This document shows positions 24,889 to 40,038 of a stretch of DNA of 64,000 bases, one piece after another. The position numbers were made by a program, and so were the translations under genes. This DNA comes from Klebsiella phage KP182. Under the pieces are notes generated by a model. The model was not told the origin of the DNA and ran no database searches. It was given only the letters and a program-made list of their open reading frames with translations. Numbering within the stretch: position 1 is the first letter of the stretch; each line of letters begins with the position of its first letter. The DNA is taken from the sequence record OM337876.1; one strand, 5' to 3'.

Positions 24889-25181
24889 TGCATTGTTTTC
24901 TCTTGAATGCGTTGGTCATATGTGATTAAGCTTGAACTAATCACGCCTTTGAGCTTGCCAGATATAAACTCAATTCTAAAATTAGGATAGCGATTCATCC
25001 ACTTCGTGTTAGGAGCATTAGAAATGAATTCTGCGCCTTTGAACGGACCAGACAGAAACTTGTAGCGCTTGTACTCAAGCAGGTTGCCAGCCGTAACCAT
25101 TGTTATTAATTGCTTCATATCGGCAAATCCTGTATTTTCCATTACTGTAATCATATCAACAATTTCTGTCTGTGTCATCAT
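24870..25181 (-). CDS. hypothetical protein
   Basis: 103-aa ORF. Confidence 0.4.
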   Translation of the reverse strand: MMTQTEIVDMITVMENTGFADMKQLITMVTAGNLLEYKRYKFLSGPFKGAEFISNAPNTKWMNRYPNFRIEFISGKLKGVISSSLITYDQRIQEKTMQWLKLL

Positions 25182-31544: not shown

Positions 31545-32036
31545 TTAATTATTAACATGCTTGTTAATAAATCTTCTAGCTTGAGTGTGGCTAACGTTTA
31601 AAGCTTCTGCAAATTTTCCAAGTGCTCCATTCCTTGAAAAATCTATAGAGTTGTATATTTTTATTCTTTCTTCAATCGTATCAGGTTTTAGTTTGTTCGC
31701 ATTGTTTTTTGATATTAATTTAATAGATTCGGCAGAATGATGTTTTCCTAAAAATCCCGTATGACATTTACCAAATTTTGGGTTTTTACCATTTAACCTA
31801 GCATCACGTGTATTTTGATTGTTAGTAGCACAATAGATATTATCTAGTGAATAAGGACCTATATCTCCTTTGCGGCACATGCAATATTCAGTGCCTTTAC
31901 GCCCACGCAAATGATATTTACCAGTAGCTTTCCACCATTCAATCCACTGTTCAAATGTTAACTCCCAGCTTATGCCACGACGAATAGCAGCATGCCTTTG
32001 CGAATTATATTTTCCAAAATCTATATCGTTTCTCAT
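31545..32036 (-). CDS. free-standing homing endonuclease-like protein (HNH-type N-domain plus NUMOD3)
   Basis: 163-aa ORF with a GKHHSAESIKLIS NUMOD3 motif and a C-terminal HTH-like VSHTQARRFIN. It is a paralog of the ORF at 36986..37465 and abuts tRNA-Arg. Confidence 0.55.
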   Translation of the reverse strand: MRNDIDFGKYNSQRHAAIRRGISWELTFEQWIEWWKATGKYHLRGRKGTEYCMCRKGDIGPYSLDNIYCATNNQNTRDARLNGKNPKFGKCHTGFLGKHHSAESIKLISKNNANKLKPDTIEERIKIYNSIDFSRNGALGKFAEALNVSHTQARRFINKHVNN

Positions 32037-32055: not shown

Positions 32056-32131
32056 TGGTACCCCCACCAGGACTCGAACCCGGACTACCGACCTTAGAAC
32101 GATCGTGTGCTATCCATTACACTATAAGGGC
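32056..32131 (-). tRNA. tRNA-Arg (anticodon UCU)
   Basis: Cloverleaf with a perfect D arm, T arm GGTTCGAGTCC, anticodon loop GTTCTAA and an encoded CCA. The acceptor stem needs three G-U pairs. Confidence 0.6.
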
Positions 32132-32133
32132 TT

Positions 32134-32220
32134 TGGTGCGTCGAACGAGACTCGAACTCGTACGGGTTTAATCCCGGGAGATTTTAAGTCTCCTTTGTCT
32201 ACCAATTCCAACATCGACGC
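32134..32220 (-). tRNA. tRNA-Leu (anticodon UAA), class II
   Basis: GCGTCGA/TCGACGC acceptor, D arm TTGGAATTGGTAGACAA, anticodon loop CTTAAAA, long variable arm and CCA. Confidence 0.85.
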
Positions 32221-32226
32221 AAATAT

Positions 32227-32354
32227 TTGTTCAGGCAGGACTCGAACCTGCACGACTGATTCCGTCAGCGATTTACCACCGTCGCCAGCATATGATGCAA
32301 TATGCGAGCTCAAAAGGTGTCCGTCACCATGTCTACCGATTTCAACACTGAACA
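32227..32354 (-). ncRNA. 128-nt tRNA-like stable RNA (candidate T4 species-2/rnaD-like)
   Basis: A perfect 7-bp acceptor pairing TGTTCAG...CTGAACA spans 128 nt. It has a Leu-like D arm at the 5-prime end, a canonical T arm GCAGGTTCGAGTCCTGC at the 3-prime end and an internal GCATAT/ATATGC hairpin. There is no canonical anticodon arm. Confidence 0.45.
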
Positions 32355-32365
32355 AGATAATTATA

Positions 32366-32842
32366 TTACCGATTATTTATAGCATTTCTTAAACGATAAA
32401 GTTGATTACAGAATTCGCGTTCAGTCAAAATCGTTTCAGAAATTTTATTTTTACCCATACTGTGAGTGAGCGTAGCATTCCTGGTAGCAGCCAAAGCTTT
32501 TCTGAATCCTTCATTTTTACTAAGTGCATCGTATGCTCCTGTCAGTAAATTCTGATACGCTTCTGAAGCACGATGGATTGGCACGCCTTTCCAATAAAGT
32601 GTTTGAGTTGGCCACCACCGTTTCTTTTTACCTTTGAACTTAGCCGATTTACCAACTAATGTACATACATGTGCTTGCATTTCAGGCGAAGAAAATTTGA
32701 GGGACTGCAAGAATCCCTCCATTGAGGCACATTCTACGCCATCATAGATAAATTTATGAGGAGCAAAGTTGCTCAAAGCACATGATGGATATGAACTACC
32801 TGAACCGATATCCATTACTTTTCCTTCACGTATTTCAACCAA
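32366..32842 (-). CDS. NADAR-domain protein (YbiA-like; putative ADP-ribosyl-nucleic-acid hydrolase)
   Basis: 158-aa ORF with GSGSSYPSCALSNFAPHKFIYDGVECASMEGFLQSLKF, matching the NADAR/DUF1768 core (SNF..F..DG.....SEH.FQ..KF). Confidence 0.6.
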   Translation of the reverse strand: MVEIREGKVMDIGSGSSYPSCALSNFAPHKFIYDGVECASMEGFLQSLKFSSPEMQAHVCTLVGKSAKFKGKKKRWWPTQTLYWKGVPIHRASEAYQNLLTGAYDALSKNEGFRKALAATRNATLTHSMGKNKISETILTEREFCNQLYRLRNAINNR

Positions 32843-33369
32843 TCAACTTTTAATGGACTTTCTTTTTGTTTATACGTAATTCCAACATGGAATGCAACCG
32901 GAGCGTCAGGAATACGAATTTCTTCTTTGATGTCAAAGATTTCTACTTTCTCAAATACTCGCATGAAATCATAATCATATTCAATTGGATTACCCAACCA
33001 AGCCTGAATAGCATACATAACTTCATTTGAACAAGAATAGTGGTTATCTAAATAAGCATCAAACTCTTCGTCTGAACAATCATATGCAGGAACATCAACG
33101 CCAAAGAATTTCTTGGAAAATTCAGGAGTTACATACTTTTGTTCAGTGTGAAGCTTTTCAAGAATTGCTTCATGGTTGTAATCATTATTTCCAAGGTATT
33201 CACCACGCCGACCATTAGAAGAGAACCATTCAAGAACATGAATTACTTGATTAATCTCTTCTTTTTCTAAGCCATAAACCATTTGGGTAGAATACCGATC
33301 AGCATCGTTTTCCCAAGTGGTAATTGCCATTGCTAAGCCTTTAGGAATAACTTGTCCAAATTTAATATG
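32815..33369 (-). CDS. hypothetical protein
   Basis: The called ORF extends to 33426 and would overlap the tRNA. The internal start MHIKFGQ at 33369 avoids this. Confidence 0.4.
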   Translation of the reverse strand, partial: HIKFGQVIPKGLAMAITTWENDADRYSTQMVYGLEKEEINQVIHVLEWFSSNGRRGEYLGNNDYNHEAILEKLHTEQKYVTPEFSKKFFGVDVPAYDCSDEEFDAYLDNHYSCSNEVMYAIQAWLGNPIEYDYDFMRVFEKVEIFDIKEEIRIPDAPVAFHVGITYKQKESPLKVDWLKYVKEK

Positions 33370-33395
33370 CATTTCAATTTCCTCTGTTGATAATT

Positions 33396-33472
33396 TGGTG
33401 ACCCTGGCAAAGACTCGAACATGCAACCAATCCCTTATGAGGGGAACGCTCTACCAATTGAGCTACAGGGCC
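33396..33472 (-). tRNA. tRNA-Met/Ile2 (anticodon CAU)
   Basis: GGCCCTG/CAGGGTC acceptor, perfect D arm GCTCAATTGGTAGAGC, anticodon loop CTCATAA and CCA. The T stem has one extra or mismatched nucleotide. Confidence 0.65.
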
Positions 33473-33496
33473 TTTATAGAAATCTTACGACTTTTA

Positions 33497-33525
33497 TAAA
33501 AGCCCTCCGAAGAGGGCGCCTTGTC
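33497..33525 (-). terminator. UUCG-tetraloop terminator
   Basis: Minus strand has GCCCTC-TTCG-GAGGGC followed by TTTTATAAAAG. Confidence 0.65.
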
Positions 33526-33550
33526 GGGCTTATCCACCTGCTAGGCAGAA

Positions 33551-33775
33551 TTACTCACACATAAAATCAGCTACTTCCCAGAAGTCATTTTCAACTGCTA
33601 CTTTAACCACCGGAGAAATTTCAGACGTTTTAATAGAAACAATTACATCACCTGTGACAGTTTCTACCAGACCAACAATTTTCTCGCTACGAGCAACAAA
33701 TTTGCTCACCGGATGAAATTTACCGGTAGCAGCGAACATAGCTTCTTGGTCAACAATCAGTGCGATACGTTTCAT
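33551..33775 (-). CDS. hypothetical protein
   Basis: 74-aa ORF. Confidence 0.4.
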   Translation of the reverse strand: MKRIALIVDQEAMFAATGKFHPVSKFVARSEKIVGLVETVTGDVIVSIKTSEISPVVKVAVENDFWEVADFMCE

Positions 33776-33830
33776 TCTTTTTCCTTGTTTGTTTGGTATG
33801 AATTAATTATATCTGTTTATTTTTGTAGCA

Positions 33831-34064
33831 TTAAATATCAAAGATGGTTCCGTTATCCCACATCGTAGCGAACATAGGAGAAACCTTAACGAATGATTTG
33901 CTTCGCATTGCAACGTAGTCGTTATCTACTTTAGCCAATCCTGAAGCAATATCAGTAATACGGCCACACTTCATAGAACCGCGACCACCTTTATTGTATG
34001 TGCGTTCTCCGTAGAAAACGATATCACCAACTTGTACGTCTCGACCTTTAGAATCTTTCATCAT
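33831..34064 (-). CDS. hypothetical protein
   Basis: 77-aa ORF. Confidence 0.4.
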   Translation of the reverse strand: MMKDSKGRDVQVGDIVFYGERTYNKGGRGSMKCGRITDIASGLAKVDNDYVAMRSKSFVKVSPMFATMWDNGTIFDI

Positions 34065-34413
34065 ATTTCGCCTGATAAATTCGTTTAAAATCAGTAATTA
34101 GCTCTTCTACATTTGAAGCATTAGTAAACGGAATAACTTGACGCAGTTTACTTACTTTACAGCCAGAATGATAAGCAATAACTTCTTGAATATCACGCTC
34201 ACTGAAGTACTCATATTTGATTAATGCTTCGTATCTGCATTTAATCCAGACCCACATACCTTTGCGTTCATCAAAAGTATATGCAAAATCAGCATGAAGC
34301 ATTAAATCACGTTCAGATTTACATAATCCTAAAGCAAAATTAGTTGGACGATTCCATTGTAATTTCACCGTAATAGCATTTACGTCATTTGATACACCAA
34401 TAAAAATATTCAT
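34048..34413 (-). CDS. hypothetical protein
   Basis: 121-aa ORF. Confidence 0.4.
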   Translation of the reverse strand: MNIFIGVSNDVNAITVKLQWNRPTNFALGLCKSERDLMLHADFAYTFDERKGMWVWIKCRYEALIKYEYFSERDIQEVIAYHSGCKVSKLRQVIPFTNASNVEELITDFKRIYQAKYDERF

Positions 34414-34562
34414 TCTATTTCCTTCGCTTGTTTTTGGCCTTCTTGTCGTGCACGAGAACGTCCTGCTTTATGCAGTGATTCGTAATATGCTCGACGTCTA
34501 TCAATGTTTTCTGTACGATATGCTTTCCCGAAATGGGATGTTTTGAAGCCGTAATATTTCAT
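34410..34562 (-). CDS. hypothetical small protein
   Basis: The called ORF extends to 34619 into the tRNA-like RNA. The internal start MKYYGF (about 34562) avoids the overlap. Confidence 0.3.
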   Translation of the reverse strand: MKYYGFKTSHFGKAYRTENIDRRRAYYESLHKAGRSRARQEGQKQAKEIE

Positions 34563-34587
34563 AATATAATTCTCAATGGCAAGTGAT

Positions 34588-34731
34588 TGGACGGTATGCC
34601 CGGTCTCGAACCGAGTCACATTGACTTTGCAGAATCCATGTGTTTAATATATCACCCATACTCGATAGCATATCTGAACGAGACTGCAATCCCGCTACTC
34701 AGCTTACACCATCTTGTATTGTGTCATACCG
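34588..34731 (-). ncRNA. 144-nt tRNA-like stable RNA (candidate T4 species-1/rnaC-like)
   Basis: A 7-bp acceptor pairing CGGTATG...CATACCG-T-CCA (encoded CCA) spans 144 nt. It has a T arm CTCGGTTCGAGACCGGG, a D-like arm ACAC..GTGT and an internal 6-bp TTGCAG/CTGCAA stem enclosing about 55 nt. Confidence 0.45.
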
Positions 34732-34737
34732 TTAATT

Positions 34738-34814
34738 TGGTCTCCATAGAATGACTCGAACATTCGACCTTTCCATCCCAAATGGAACGCTCTACCAGAC
34801 TGAGCTATACGGAG
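34738..34814 (-). tRNA. tRNA-Pro (anticodon UGG)
   Basis: CTCCGTA acceptor, D arm GCTCAGTCTGGTAGAGC, anticodon loop TTTGGGA, T arm GAATGTTCGAGTCATTC and CCA. Confidence 0.85.
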
Positions 34815-34819
34815 TAATT

Positions 34820-34894
34820 TGGAGCATCCAAGGAGAATCGAACTCCTATCTTCTGGGTGGAAGCCAGACATAATATCCGCTATACGATGGATGC
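34820..34894 (-). tRNA. tRNA-Gly (anticodon UCC)
   Basis: GCATCCA/TGGATGC acceptor, anticodon stem TCTGG/CCAGA with loop CTTCCAC, T arm AGGAGTTCGATTCTCCT and CCA. Confidence 0.85.
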
Positions 34895-34899
34895 AAATT

Positions 34900-34975
34900 T
34901 GGCAGGCCCTGAAGGAATCGAACCCTCATCACTGGGTTTGGAGCCCAGCATAATAGCCGTTATACTAAGAACCTG
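34900..34975 (-). tRNA. tRNA-Trp (anticodon CCA)
   Basis: Anticodon stem CTGGG/CCCAG with loop CTCCAAA and T loop TTCGATT. The acceptor needs two G-U pairs and carries one extra nucleotide. Confidence 0.6.
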
Positions 34976-34980
34976 TTATT

Positions 34981-35056
34981 TGGTGGGAGTAACTGGACTC
35001 GAACCAGTCACCGCTCGATTATCGGTCGAGAGCTCTACCAAATGAGCTATACTCCC
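34981..35056 (-). tRNA. tRNA-Ile (anticodon GAU)
   Basis: GGGAGTA/TACTCCC acceptor, perfect D and T arms, anticodon loop CCGATAA and CCA. Confidence 0.85.
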
Positions 35057-35122
35057 ATGGAAAGCTAATCATCTAATTGTTGATGTACCACTGCTATGGG
35101 CAGCGTTTAACTTTCATAAATT

Positions 35123-35207
35123 TGGCGGAGAGTAAAGGAGTTGAACCCTCACCGTTTCCGATGGCCCGGATTTCAAGTCCGGTTTGCTACCACTAGCGCT
35201 ACTCTCC
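35123..35207 (-). tRNA. tRNA-Ser (anticodon UGA), class II
   Basis: GGAGAGT/ACTCTCC acceptor, anticodon stem CCGGA/TCCGG with loop CTTGAAA, long variable arm and CCA. Confidence 0.8.
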
Positions 35208-35303
35208 ATTAATTGGTGAAGGAAGTGCCATATAGACACAATTCGCTTAGCGACAGCCACAGCATTTTGCGGGCCGTGTATTTTTCCACCATTCCTTCAT
35301 TGT

Positions 35304-35379
35304 TGGGGTGACCGATGGGAGTTGAACCCATGACTACGAGAATCACAATCTCGAGTTCTACCAACTGAACTACGGCCAC
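35304..35379 (-). tRNA. tRNA-His (anticodon GUG)
   Basis: GTGGCCG acceptor, D arm GTTCAGTTGGTAGAAC, anticodon stem CGAGA/TCTCG with loop TTGTGAT, T arm ATGGGTTCAACTCCCAT and CCA. Confidence 0.85.
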
Positions 35380-35475
35380 ATCAATATTCACTCCATCCAT
35401 CATGAGGACTTCATACGAAATTAAGAGAAGAATGATCAGTTCAACCCCTGTAGACGCGTTGAATGAATATTAATT

Positions 35476-35550
35476 TGGCTGGACTATCTGGATTCGAACC
35501 AGAGATACCGGAGTCAAAGGCCGGTGACTTAACCGCTTGTCTATAGTCCA
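35476..35550 (-). tRNA. tRNA-Gln (anticodon UUG)
   Basis: TGGACTA/TAGTCCA acceptor, anticodon loop CTTTGAC (T4 Gln-like), T arm TCTGGTTCGAATCCAGA and CCA. Confidence 0.75.
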
Positions 35551-35551
35551 A

Positions 35552-36220
35552 TTATTTATTTACTAATTTTCTTCCTTTATACCATCCTTCTGGTATAGGG
35601 GAATCTTTTGAAATCTTTTTAGCTTCTATTCCATTATTAATCCACATTGTGCCAAATTGTGAATTTTTTGAACCGGATTGAGCTAGTTTCAGTTTATCAG
35701 AAATTTTTCGTTTAGTTTCAGAAGAGTGTGTTTTACCTAAAAACGGATTTCCATTTTTAGCTATATTAGCTTTAACTGCGTCTGCAATGCGAGAACGTGC
35801 ATCTGGTGTAATTCCAGATTTAACCTTATCCGAAAAATTCAGTTTAAATTTAGAATCATTTCTAATTTTATTACTGGTTGAATTTCCTCCAAGTATTCCT
35901 CTTGCTTTCATTTTTGACGGAGTCCAATATGTTGAGTTAACATAGTCAAATCCACCTTCACCACCAAGTTTTAAATTATATACGTTTCCTAATAAAAATT
36001 CTGGTGTAACTATTTCAGATTCCTTTAAATACATCTCCTCAGATGATTCACAATAATGAATAACTTCCTTGGTAAAGTTCTCAATTCCGTATTTTAGAAT
36101 TGCCTTTTTAATTAATACACCTGAACCCATGTAGCCATCATTGATGTCATCAGTTTTATGGGCTCCAACATAATATTTGCCATTTACATTATTGGTTATT
36201 TTATAAATCAAATAGTACAT
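35552..36220 (-). CDS. segB-like: GIY-YIG homing endonuclease (SegB-like, within tRNA cluster)
   Basis: 222-aa ORF with an N-terminal YLIYKITNNVNGKYYVGAHKT GIY-YIG motif. A seg-family endonuclease sits in the same place in the T4 tRNA cluster. Confidence 0.75.
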   Translation of the reverse strand: MYYLIYKITNNVNGKYYVGAHKTDDINDGYMGSGVLIKKAILKYGIENFTKEVIHYCESSEEMYLKESEIVTPEFLLGNVYNLKLGGEGGFDYVNSTYWTPSKMKARGILGGNSTSNKIRNDSKFKLNFSDKVKSGITPDARSRIADAVKANIAKNGNPFLGKTHSSETKRKISDKLKLAQSGSKNSQFGTMWINNGIEAKKISKDSPIPEGWYKGRKLVNK

Positions 36221-36284
36221 AAATTATTCTCCATACCAACTACGTGATAATTATATCACATGGTACGGATAAAGTAAACAAAAG

Positions 36285-36357
36285 AGGCGGAGGCAGGACT
36301 CGAACCTGCGCGTGTCGGGATATGAGCCCAACATTCTACCAACTGAAGTTACTCCGC
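36285..36357 (-). tRNA. tRNA-Met (anticodon CAU), second copy
   Basis: Anticodon stem TTGGG/CCCGA with loop CTCATAT and T arm GCAGGTTCGAGTCCTGC. The acceptor/D pairing is imperfect and no CCA is encoded. Confidence 0.55.
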
Positions 36358-36366
36358 ATTTATCCG

Positions 36367-36506
36367 GGTTCTTGAAGTACTAACAAGTAGCTTGATGTAG
36401 AACACGCTAAAGATATAATCTTCCGAATATAGAGCTTATCCCGTGGGAACAAACAGCTTCGTCCTCGGCATTATCTTATAGGACTCAAACTCATCTTCAA
36501 GAACTG
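36367..36506. ncRNA. structured element closed by 10-bp long-range inverted repeat
   Basis: GTTCTTGAAG (36367-36376) pairs with CTTCAAGAAC (36497-36506) about 120 nt apart. There is no ORF and no tRNA fold. The element lies between tRNA-Met and tRNA-Asp. Confidence 0.35.
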
Positions 36507-36519
36507 CCACGTTCTTATT

Positions 36520-36596
36520 TGGCGGACCTAGCGAGGATCGAACTCGCGCTCTCTCCCGTGACAGGGGAGTATTTTATCCAACTAAACTATAGGTCC
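36520..36596 (-). tRNA. tRNA-Asp (anticodon GUC)
   Basis: GGACCTA/TAGGTCC acceptor, anticodon stem CTCCC/GGGAG with loop CTGTCAC, T arm GCGAGTTCGATCCTCGC and CCA. Confidence 0.85.
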
Positions 36597-36601
36597 ATAA
36601 T

Positions 36602-36718
36602 TCGCTTTCAGAGATACTCTGGCACGATGCCGAAGCAAAGGGGAACAGGACTCTCATCACCTTGGTACCAGATGAATCTTGTTTAGCACTCTGTTCTAAG
36701 ATGTATCCCTGAAAGCGA
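36602..36718. ncRNA. structured element closed by 11-bp long-range inverted repeat
   Basis: TTCGCTTTCAG (36602-36612) pairs with CTGAAAGCGAA (36708-36718) about 95 nt apart. The region is non-coding and lies between tRNA-Asp and tRNA-Asn. Confidence 0.35.
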
Positions 36719-36827
36719 ACTTTCAACGCCGTAAGAAATTATAAGTACGTAGTTATCGTTGAGGGAACTCGTAAACAGGGAATTCTATGCCGACGATTTA
36801 TCAGAACGTCTTCTGACTTCTATATTT

Positions 36828-36911
36828 GGCGGGCCGTGCAGGTATCGAACCTGCCTAGTCATTTCTGACACGGATTAACAGTCCGTCGCTTACCCTCTCA
36901 GCCAACGACCC
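36828..36911 (-). tRNA. tRNA-Asn (anticodon GUU) with class-II-like long variable arm
   Basis: Anticodon stem ACGGA/TCCGT with loop CTGTTAA, a 15-nt variable hairpin GTCAGAAATGACTAG, T arm GCAGGTTCGATACCTGC and CCA. A possible G at -1 is present. Confidence 0.6.
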
Positions 36912-36917
36912 CGAATT

Positions 36918-36995
36918 TGGTAGAACGTGAGGGATTTGAACCCATCGACATCTCGATTAAAAGTCGAGTGCTCTAACCAGATGAGCTAACGTTCT
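36918..36995 (-). tRNA. tRNA-Lys (anticodon UUU)
   Basis: AGAACGT/ACGTTCT acceptor, perfect D arm GCTCATCTGGTTAGAGC, anticodon stem CTCGA/TCGAG with loop CTTTTAA and CCA. The T stem is weak. The 5-prime 10 nt overlap the homing-endonuclease stop. Confidence 0.7.
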
Positions 36996-37465
36996 ATATA
37001 ACTATTTATAAATCTTCGTGCTTGGGTATGCGTAACATTTATGGCTTTAGCATATCTGTTAAGAGCTCCCCATTTTGTCATGTCCATTGAATTATATACT
37101 TCAATTCGTGAAGCAACTTCAGTGTCTGTCAGTTTTGAAGCGCTATTTTCTGAAATCTTTTTACGAGATTCTTCAGTATGATGTTTTCCTTTAAAATTAT
37201 CACACTTGCCGCCATAAGGTTTTACTCCATTTTTAACAGCATCTCGTACATTATCAGCATTTGTAGCACAAAATACATTTGTTGGAGAATAAGGACCTTT
37301 GTCACCTATTCTGCACATGCAGTATTCATGACCTTTACGTCCACGCTCAGATAATTTTCCGGTAGATTTCCACCATTCAATCCAAGTATCATACGTAAAT
37401 TCCCAAGGAATTCCACGATACAATGCATTATATCTTTGTTGTTCGTATTTAATTTTCATAAACAC
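36986..37465 (-). CDS. free-standing homing endonuclease-like protein (paralog of 31545..32036)
   Basis: 159-aa ORF sharing WEFTYDTWIEWWK, EYCMCR.GD.GPYS, GKHHTEESRKKIS (NUMOD3) and VTHTQARRFIN blocks with its paralog. It is flanked by tRNA-Lys and tRNA-Tyr. Confidence 0.55.
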   Translation of the reverse strand: MFMKIKYEQQRYNALYRGIPWEFTYDTWIEWWKSTGKLSERGRKGHEYCMCRIGDKGPYSPTNVFCATNADNVRDAVKNGVKPYGGKCDNFKGKHHTEESRKKISENSASKLTDTEVASRIEVYNSMDMTKWGALNRYAKAINVTHTQARRFINSYIER

Positions 37466-37473
37466 TCTAAATT

Positions 37474-37560
37474 TGGTGGGGAGTGATGGAGTCGAACCAC
37501 CCGAGCCTTTTGAGCAACAGATTTACAGTCTGTCCCGCTACCCCTACGGTCTAACGCCCC
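37474..37560 (-). tRNA. tRNA-Tyr (anticodon GUA), class II
   Basis: Anticodon stem ACAGA/TCTGT with loop CTGTAAA, long variable arm, T arm GGTGGTTCGACTCCATC and CCA. The acceptor has one mismatch. Confidence 0.7.
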
Positions 37561-39300: not shown

Positions 39301-39304
<4 letters not shown>

Positions 39305-40038
39305 TTTTGAATTCCTAATATAGTGTTGATTTTTGAATAAAGCTCTTCTAGAGAACCGTCGTTAGTTATTACGATATCGCCTTCGCGAATCGGAAGTCCA
39401 CGCTCTGTGACGTGAGTATCTTTTTTAGAACCTTCTTGCTCAGGACGAACTACATGAATAACTGTAGCACCCATCGCCCTGGCTACATCAAGTTCATGGT
39501 CTTGACGAGTATCTGGTACAATGAAATAATCATAATCACCAAAAGTATCAGCCATAACCAAAGTAAATCGTTTTACCCAATACATGCGATCGAGCTTATC
39601 ACAGACAATGTCAGTCCCAAGGGTCTGCATGAGACGACGAATTGACCATGGCTCAACAGGTTTATTTATTACAACTTTACGGATGACTTCCATCGTATCA
39701 CCGTCAAGTATTTTACGTTTGTTATCATAAACCACGCCAGGTAAAGGCAAATCATGATGAACATATTCAATCGCGTTCGCCATGATACGAATCACGTCTT
39801 TAGTAGACAGATTTAAATCCTGCTCACGATCGTAATCAATGCCCTCAATCATAGACCGAGTGATGCGAGGAAACTCACGAGACGTATCACGATACCACTC
39901 AATAAGCATAGCATCAGCTAGTGCATCTTTAATTGGACCCGCTAACTGATGCTTTGTTGCATTGTAGTTATCCATAATGTAGTCAGCAGTTGTATCTTTG
40001 CCACTGCGTTTTTTACCAATCAAAAATAAAAGCTTCAA
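39301..40038 (-). CDS. 1: deoxynucleoside monophosphate kinase
   Basis: 245-aa ORF with high identity to T4 gp1 (KRSGKDTTAD; QLAGPIKDALA; YFIVPDTRQDHE.D.ARAMGATVIHVVRP; ITNDGSLEEL.SKI). Confidence 0.95.

Follow-up and report, generated by a model that had tools for sequence, protein, structure and literature searches.

What kind of RNA is encoded at positions 34588-34731 of the window, the whole stretch of 64,000 nucleotides (nt) of Klebsiella phage KP182 DNA (OM337876.1) that was analysed, is the question raised by this locus. A sequence-only reading had proposed a stable RNA other than a tRNA, with tRNA-like ends and a size compatible with T4 species 1 RNA. This equivalence was supported beyond size by alignment, covariance models and synteny, and judged from these sequence comparisons the element is the ortholog of T4 rnaC (species 1 RNA) in Jiaodavirus, that is, an unannotated member of the already known rnaC family. 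It is very probably a stable, non-decoding, tRNA-shaped RNA encoded within the phage tRNA cluster.

Homology to T4 rnaC

The RNA was read directly on the minus strand from 34731 to 34588, and its 144 nt include the encoded CCA. The minus strand was chosen because all 15 tRNA genes called by ARAGORN (32056-37560) lie on it, with Rfam agreeing on 14 of them. The 501-nt region around the element matched Jiaodavirus phages, the KPV15/JD18 group, at 98.6-99.6% among the best 40 records listed, and KPV15 is classified in Tevenvirinae; Jiaodavirus.

T4 rnaC (NC_000866 70908-71046) is annotated as a misc_RNA, 'small, stable RNA', species 1 RNA. In a structure-guided alignment both RNAs had the T loop and two sequence blocks in common, GUAAGCYGAGUAGCG and CGUUCRGAUAUG, and their identity in the structural alignment was 55%. 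Two covariance models, R1 and R2, include Jiaodavirus sequences, so a third one, R3, was built from 19 homologs of other genera only. The sole match of R3 in the 64-kb window was the element (34588-34731, minus strand, 85.5 bits, E 6.8e-18, model positions 1-141 of 141), and the comparison to T4 rnaC by covariance model, which had been asked for from the sequence alone, was in this way positive. The element was scored at 118 bits by R1, whose single match in the window was also at 34588-34731 (minus strand), and at 124 bits by R2.

Simple sequence searches did not join the two RNAs. BLASTN with the element as query found Jiaodavirus only (137 records, at least 95% identity) and T4 was not reached, while T4 rnaC as query found Tequatrovirus, Enterobacter phages, EcS1, a Yersinia phage and part of Salmonella phage Melville. 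No Rfam family was found for the element or for T4 rnaC, either at the gathering threshold or at E<=10, where T4 rnaC gave just a 17.5-bit tRNA-Sec-like match.

Secondary structure of the RNA

The minimum free energy of the single sequence was -48.9 kcal/mol (z = -3.8), and none of 200 shuffles folded as well. The parts of the RNA are listed below, all on the minus strand, with RNA position p at window coordinate 34732-p and lengths of helices in base pairs (bp).

34588..34731, minus: rnaC-like (T4 species 1-like) RNA of 144 nt, matched by covariance models R1, R2 and R3.
34725..34731, minus: 5' strand of the acceptor stem, CGGUAUG, RNA 1-7, by direct reading; 4 of the 7 acceptor pairs covary across lineages.
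34592..34598, minus: 3' strand of the acceptor stem, CAUACCG, RNA 134-140, by direct reading; fully Watson-Crick.
34588..34591, minus: discriminator U (34591) and CCA (34590-34588), RNA 141-144, by direct reading.
34651..34724, minus: long bulged arm in the D-arm position, helices 2, 3 and 4, RNA 8-81, from RNAalifold and pair counts.
34684..34689, minus: loop 1, UUGCAG, RNA 43-48, at the tip of the long arm, 5' partner of the kissing helix; it complements loop 2 in all 27 sequences.
34655..34655, minus: G77, second G of a 'GG', unpaired and invariant in 9 lineage representatives; a putative partner of the T-loop C.
34643..34650, minus: A/U-rich single-stranded linker, RNA 82-89, unpaired in the consensus; two As invariant across lineages.
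34617..34642, minus: hairpin 2 in the anticodon-arm position, 10-bp stem and 6-nt loop, RNA 90-115; 10/10 stem pairs compensatory.
34627..34632, minus: loop 2, CUGCAA, RNA 100-105, 3' partner of the kissing helix.
34599..34615, minus: T arm CUCGG-UUCGAGA-CCGGG, RNA 117-133, 100% paired; 2 of 5 pairs covary.

A four-way junction composed of the acceptor stem, a long bulged arm of three helices, a 10-bp hairpin and the T arm was obtained from 14 sequences with MAFFT and RNAalifold, and 24 of its 46 pairs were kept by changes on both sides. When 27 sequences from about nine Tevenvirinae genera were aligned, 93.5% of the cells were standard pairs, against 36-44% with the 3' partners slid by 1-3 columns. 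Two-sided changes occurred in 38 of the 53 pairs, and the covariation score was reached by none of 500 shuffles; a 24-sequence alignment gave similar pair statistics. Compensatory change was seen in 14 of the 16 pairs of helix 3 and in 5 of the 6 pairs of helix 4.

Several parts named from the sequence alone were found as described. The perfect 7-bp acceptor stem, the discriminator U and the encoded CCA could all be read directly on the minus strand, and the T arm was present and adjoined the 3' strand of the acceptor stem on its 5' side, as in tRNA. These parts, together with the 5-bp T stem and its UUCRANN loop, are those of a canonical tRNA. The rest of the cloverleaf was not: ARAGORN made no call, RF00005 gave no match at E<=10, the loop had 6 nt and the D-like arm was not conserved. 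For this D-like arm, ACAC/GUGU, both words were indeed present but were paired in 62.6% of cases, near the 52-55% of the 5'-slid partners, and its 3' half belongs to a well-supported helix, so the arm was rejected. No tmRNA was called by ARAGORN, and among Rfam tmRNA models (RF00023 and clan) none matched the element.

The kissing loop

In the middle of the RNA, the sequence-only reading had placed a 6-bp TTGCAG/CTGCAA stem enclosing about 55 nt instead of an anticodon arm. The two words, UUGCAG at 34689-34684 and CUGCAA at 34632-34627, are exact complements and do stand in place of an anticodon, but they are two hairpin loops and not the strands of an ordinary stem. Loop 1 and loop 2 were perfectly complementary in 27 of 27 sequences, in four covarying versions that follow the scheme UUGNNG/CNNCAA:

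UUGACG/CGUCAA: T4, RB69, T4-like types from IMG/VR (L003, L011, L032), Kanagawavirus (EcS1, PEi26, Kosakonia 305), Moonvirus and Gelderlandvirus.
UUGCAG/CUGCAA: Jiaodavirus.
UUGAUG/CAUCAA: Tegunavirus-like lineage.
UUGGCG/CGCCAA: Marfavirus.

The helix was 100% paired, and each of its two central pairs occurred as three Watson-Crick types. The stems that flank the loops covary as well (5/6 pairs in the long arm and 10/10 in hairpin 2), therefore the three helices coexist and the interaction is one of loop with loop. From this covariation, UUGCAG/CUGCAA is read as a kissing helix of 6 bp, with one strand in the apical loop of the long arm and the other in that of hairpin 2.

The 6-nt loop in the anticodon position is thus fully sequestered, which argues against decoding. 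Loop 2 was also considered as an anticodon, since GCA in CUGCAA together with U73 would suggest Cys; this was rejected, as the loop has 6 nt, varies between lineages (GUC, AUC and GCC contexts) and always pairs with loop 1.

Invariant positions and variants of the acceptor end

Nine lineage representatives agreed at the following unpaired positions: in the tail, the discriminator U and the last two letters, C and A; in the T loop, the C that corresponds to tRNA C56; beside the junction, one G of the unpaired GG; and three As, two of them in the linker and one between hairpin 2 and the T arm. The invariant G77 and the T-loop C may form a pair like the G19:C56 elbow pair of tRNA. In the L011-type lineage, known from IMG/VR contigs of 148-175 kb (L011 5958-6098 and L047 4201-4341), the T loop was an aberrant UGCAUGC instead of UUCGAAU, and CG replaced the junction GG. 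This could be a compensatory change in the elbow contact, and it fits the elbow idea in a single lineage.

The acceptor end was more variable. Tandem U-U mismatches at acceptor pairs 4 and 5 (alignment columns 4-5 with 144-145) were found in 21 of the 27 sequences, from several genera, and these two pairs were Watson-Crick only in Jiaodavirus and the Tegunavirus-like lineage. The conserved U-U mismatch could be a recognition feature. The tail was U-ACA in most sequences (T4-type), U-UCA in the Tegunavirus-like lineage and U-CCA in Jiaodavirus and Marfavirus, both of which are lineages of Klebsiella phages.

Such an end might be thought to be charged. An RNA of this kind could have its CCA aminoacylated by a host synthetase and be used outside decoding, for tmRNA-like rescue or as an amino-acid donor, and the perfect acceptor stem, the discriminator U, the encoded CCA and the canonical T loop would suit this, as would the invariance of the discriminator U and the terminal CA across lineages. 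However, G3:U70 was absent, pair 3 being G-C or A-U, and to our knowledge C1:G72 with U73 matches no E. coli identity set, which counts against charging. In most homologs, moreover, the tail is ACA or UCA and the stem has U-U mismatches, and neither a tag open reading frame (ORF) nor a tmRNA call was obtained. Charging is on this evidence improbable.

Distribution of the family

Homologs were collected by motif scans of IMG/VR and from loci anchored on gene 1 (dNMP kinase) in a phage collection. Members were found in Tequatrovirus, Mosigvirus, Enterobacter phages (Karamvirus-like), Kanagawavirus, Moonvirus, a Tegunavirus-like lineage, Gelderlandvirus, Marfavirus and Jiaodavirus, so that the family is conserved over about nine genera at 44-60% identity. 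Unannotated copies were found by R1 in RB69, in Melville and in Klebsiella phage MY02 (Marfavirus), in gaps of the tRNA region that seemed 'empty':

RB69: L112 14316-14455, corresponding to NC_004928 about 74157-74296 (-), without an RNA feature.
Salmonella phage Melville: L111 14088-14227, between tRNA-Trp and tRNA-Gly, without an RNA feature.
Klebsiella phage MY02: L117 14150-14291, without an RNA feature.

When the Melville and Marfavirus versions served as BLASTN queries, Kanagawavirus (PEi26 and Kosakonia phage 305) and Moonvirus (NM4.3) were added. Within 10 kb on either side of gene 1, no copy was found in one genome each of Dhakavirus, Slopekvirus, Krischvirus, Hadassahvirus (Acinetobacter) and Biquartavirus (Aeromonas), nor in two genomes of Gaprivervirus. 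Among the matches listed from two permissive pattern scans of IMG/VR most were tRNAs or noise, and only Marfavirus-type copies were added after these matches had been filtered by covariance model or loop complementarity. A single metagenome scan gave GC-rich chance matches and three known types.

This distribution bears on whether the element is only a tRNA gene that decayed after an insertion and has no function. The tRNA-like ends and a tRNA cluster rich in homing endonuclease genes would be expected of such a pseudo-tRNA. But the RNA was kept over these genera with compensatory changes in most of its pairs and a covarying tertiary helix, and RB69, with only two tRNA genes, has retained rnaC together with an rnaD homolog just upstream of it. 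A pseudo-tRNA is strongly disfavoured and deserves scarcely any weight.

Genome context

The gene 1 homolog is located at 39301-40038 (minus strand), and the element, like rnaC in T4, belongs to the tRNA cluster that follows gene 1/57A/57B. The nearest neighbours on both sides are as follows.

34738..34814, minus: tRNA-Pro(UGG), upstream neighbour in the same direction of transcription, called by ARAGORN and Rfam.
34732..34737, minus: 6-nt spacer AAUUAA from the CCA of tRNA-Pro to the 5' end of the RNA, by direct reading.
34410..34562, minus: downstream ORF of 50 aa (153 nt) with the likely true ATG start, matching the KPV15 annotation; no Pfam hit.

The sequence-only reading had put the element immediately 5' of tRNA-Pro, which holds for plus-strand coordinates; in the sense of the RNA it lies downstream (3') of tRNA-Pro, after the 6-nt spacer. 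The homologs of T4, L032 and Melville have similar leaders, AAUUAU or AAUAAU, before them. Between tRNA-Pro and the element, neither a promoter-like nor a terminator-like site was observed.

The element might also act in cis, its fold recruiting RNase P and 3' processing so as to separate or stabilise the tRNA precursor and the mRNA, with the excised RNA as a by-product. The start of an ORF only about 25 nt past the CCA in the KP182 window and in Marfavirus, with no terminator between them, could be taken this way, as could the position of the next terminator-like hairpin on the minus strand, at 33517-33502. This context is however not conserved, since T4 and RB69 have a hairpin and then a long gap, and the Melville copy stands between two tRNA genes. 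Nor would a punctuation signal need a conserved, covarying 70-nt arm and a kissing loop, and T4 RNAC accumulates as a stable late RNA (PMC9697503). Punctuation as the role of the element is accordingly quite unlikely, and an RNA that acts after its excision is preferred.

The hairpin itself is strong and terminator-like (33517-33502, minus strand, GCCCUC-UUCG-GAGGGC followed by UUUU) and is the next of its kind after the RNA. Four small ORFs downstream of the RNA form a block that it closes, just before an isolated tRNA-Met (33396-33472). Three likely homing-endonuclease ORFs were observed within the tRNA cluster (35552-36220, 36986-37465 and 31545-32036, all on the minus strand), one with SegE/GIY-YIG plus NUMOD3, one with NUMOD3 only and the third without a Pfam match; by eye, the third resembles a paralog of the second. 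These ORFs probably explain why the order of tRNA genes differs between the KP182 window and KPV15.

The downstream ORF and annotation of the region

An ORF called mechanically at 34410..34619 overlaps the RNA, and it had been suspected to be over-extended. This proved correct: its GTG start lies inside the T arm, and the ATG at 34562-34560, which is 25 nt past the CCA and preceded by GAGA, yields the 50-aa product annotated in KPV15. The downstream coding sequence (CDS) starts after the RNA in the records of both KPV15 and Ra_O-2.

Among the 60 Jiaodavirus records shown, no RNA was annotated under the match. Several Jiaodavirus records instead carry 'hypothetical protein' CDSs over or into the RNA, e.g. 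OR354875 gp150, OK631811 and PQ569693, which are either the downstream ORF extended to the GTG or a 99-nt CDS inside it (PQ569693 CDS 24978-25076). If these annotations and the overlapping mechanical ORFs were right, the region would encode protein, either as an N-terminal extension of ORF 34410..34619 or as the small plus-strand ORFs annotated in some GenBank records. Against this, the changes between lineages over the RNA region were 1-2-nt indels and substitutions that preserve pairs rather than codons, therefore conserved coding is incompatible with them, and the 50-aa ORF has an ATG and GAGA of its own past the RNA. A coding role is hardly credible, and the CDSs over the RNA are probably annotation artefacts.

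The tRNA-like element at 32227

A second element, at 32227-32355 on the minus strand, lies directly 5' of tRNA-Leu(UAA) in the RNA sense and had been paired with the element at 34588 in the sequence-only reading. It has an acceptor stem UGUUCAG/CUGAACA, a class-II-like D arm and a T arm GCAGG-UUCGAGU-CCUGC, and is without an encoded CCA. Its fold was ordinary (z = -0.64), and the only Rfam tmRNA fragment match, of 7.7 bits, was found at 32235-32251, away from the rnaC element.

None of the rnaC models R1, R2 and R3 matched this element. The comparison to T4 rnaD that had been asked for was also negative, blastn-short at E<=1 finding no rnaD-like sequence or homolog in the window; the Melville and Marfavirus homologs of rnaC likewise had no adjacent rnaD match. 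The reading of the two elements as an rnaC/rnaD pair therefore fails, and that at 32227 is a different tRNA-like element, homologous to neither rnaC nor rnaD.

Jiaodavirus phages conserve the 32227 element, and Enterobacter phages do so at about 83%. The copy of phage SmallBear_ER8 is annotated as a 'tRNA-OTHER pseudogene'; there the tRNA-like ends were one substitution apart and the central ~70 nt were unrelated, so the element resembles an exchangeable core in a constant tRNA frame.

Proposed maturation and function

The RNA would be co-transcribed with the tRNAs, because it starts 6 nt after tRNA-Pro with neither promoter nor terminator between them. RNase P processing of the T4 rnaC precursor is described in the older literature. 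In KP182 the 5' end would likewise be cut by RNase P, and the 3' end would be trimmed exonucleolytically to the encoded CCA, in the manner of a tRNA. With the kissing helix occupying the loop at the anticodon position, the RNA would be unable to decode, and the invariant unpaired G and the T-loop C may rebuild a tRNA-like elbow. For T4, expression of RNAC as a late RNA has been confirmed by Northern blot (PMC9697503).

As to function, a role outside translation can be put forward tentatively: the RNA might be a non-decoding mimic, a decoy or titrator for a protein that recognises the 3' end or the elbow of tRNAs. It would offer a genuine acceptor end, T arm and elbow on a rigid body unable to decode, and its target could be an enzyme of processing or repair, or else a defence factor of the host that is directed at tRNAs. 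Even for T4 the function of rnaC is given as unknown (PMC3014915, PMC9697503, PMC12685909), therefore the decoy or titrator role is a guess.

In a more specific form, the rnaC family would be a dedicated anti-defence or hijacking mimic of tRNA. Its CA/CCA-ended acceptor stem, T arm and elbow, carried by a body that the kissing loop locks out of decoding, would sequester or redirect a host factor that recognises the 3' end or the elbow of tRNAs; candidates would be an immune nuclease that targets tRNAs, a nucleotidyltransferase toxin, RNase P and the CCA-adding enzyme. The perfect stem and the encoded CCA in lineages of Klebsiella phages would then reflect tuning to the host. This form of the idea seems unlikely.

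Several points, that silence on function in T4 among them, weigh against the reading of the element as a stable, non-decoding rnaC RNA. The maturation proposed for the Jiaodavirus RNA is modelled on T4 and on the RNA's own shape. The covariation of the loops would be compatible with an intramolecular kiss and with intermolecular loop-loop dimerisation alike. Most homologs have U-U mismatches and ACA, therefore a perfect stem and CCA may not be essential to the function of the family. The alignments used for the pair counts were fitted to the model structure and are somewhat biased towards it; the independent MAFFT/RNAalifold analysis agrees with them.

Significance and comparison with known systems

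The rnaC family was extended, as unannotated copies, to Klebsiella phages used in phage-therapy work and over about nine genera of Tevenvirinae. What is new for rnaC is an architecture supported by covariation, and the 6-bp loop-loop helix that masks the anticodon-equivalent loop was not described in the literature searched. Literature searches on the function of rnaC or on a kissing loop, whose coverage did not extend to the T4 genome review PMC150520, gave nothing past 'function unknown'. The KP182 variant is the cleanest substrate for tests of RNase P cleavage, CCA-end biology, charging and protein binding, because it is a natural variant with a perfect acceptor stem and an encoded CCA. This CCA-ended, perfectly paired variant and the kissing-loop architecture make the question of the role of rnaC more tractable. 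Annotation could also be corrected, since several deposited genomes carry spurious 'hypothetical protein' CDSs and no Rfam family exists to catch the RNA.

The tRNA-like domain of tmRNA and viral tRNA-like structures (TLS), such as the 3' TLS of TYMV, are like the element in that they imitate a tRNA with their acceptor stem, T arm and CCA, while the anticodon function is missing or replaced. RNase P, the CCA-adding enzyme and, in some cases, synthetases act on RNAs of these kinds. The element differs from them: it gave no Rfam tmRNA or TLS match, lacks an mRNA-like tag and G3:U70, and has no pseudoknot in its acceptor stem, and its body consists of two arms locked by a kissing loop. YrlA RNAs (RF02553), bacterial Y RNA-like RNAs that occur in some phages too, are likewise non-coding and combine a tRNA-like module with an extra structured domain. 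In contrast, there was no YrlA match on the element, only a weak one at 34789-34850 in the tRNA-Pro/tRNA-Gly region, and we know of no Ro/Rsr partner in T4-like phages.

For the loop-loop helix, the kissing complexes of HIV TAR-TAR* and ColE1 RNA I-RNA II are the nearest likeness, in which hairpin loops of 6-7 nt (6 nt in the element) pair along their whole length; they show that steric constraints allow a loop-loop helix to be paired throughout. Such complexes form between molecules or were engineered, whereas both loops of the element are parts of a single 144-nt RNA and arise from one junction, therefore the long arm must fold back, in a three-dimensional arrangement that is predicted here.

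The closest known system is T4 rnaC, whose species 1 RNA was sequenced in the 1970s. The RNA is abundant late in T4 infection (PMC3014915, PMC9697503, PMC12685909). The two RNAs are alike in length (140 nt in T4 vs 144 nt), four-way junction, T loop, UUGNNG/CNNCAA loops, discriminator U and location in the tRNA cluster. They differ in the acceptor stem, which has tandem U-U mismatches in T4 and is fully Watson-Crick in KP182, in the tail (ACA vs encoded CCA) and in the kissing pair (UUGACG/CGUCAA vs UUGCAG/CUGCAA). They also differ in their neighbours: upstream stands rnaD in T4, as in RB69, and tRNA-Pro in KP182, while downstream a hairpin follows in T4 and an ORF follows after 25 nt in KP182.

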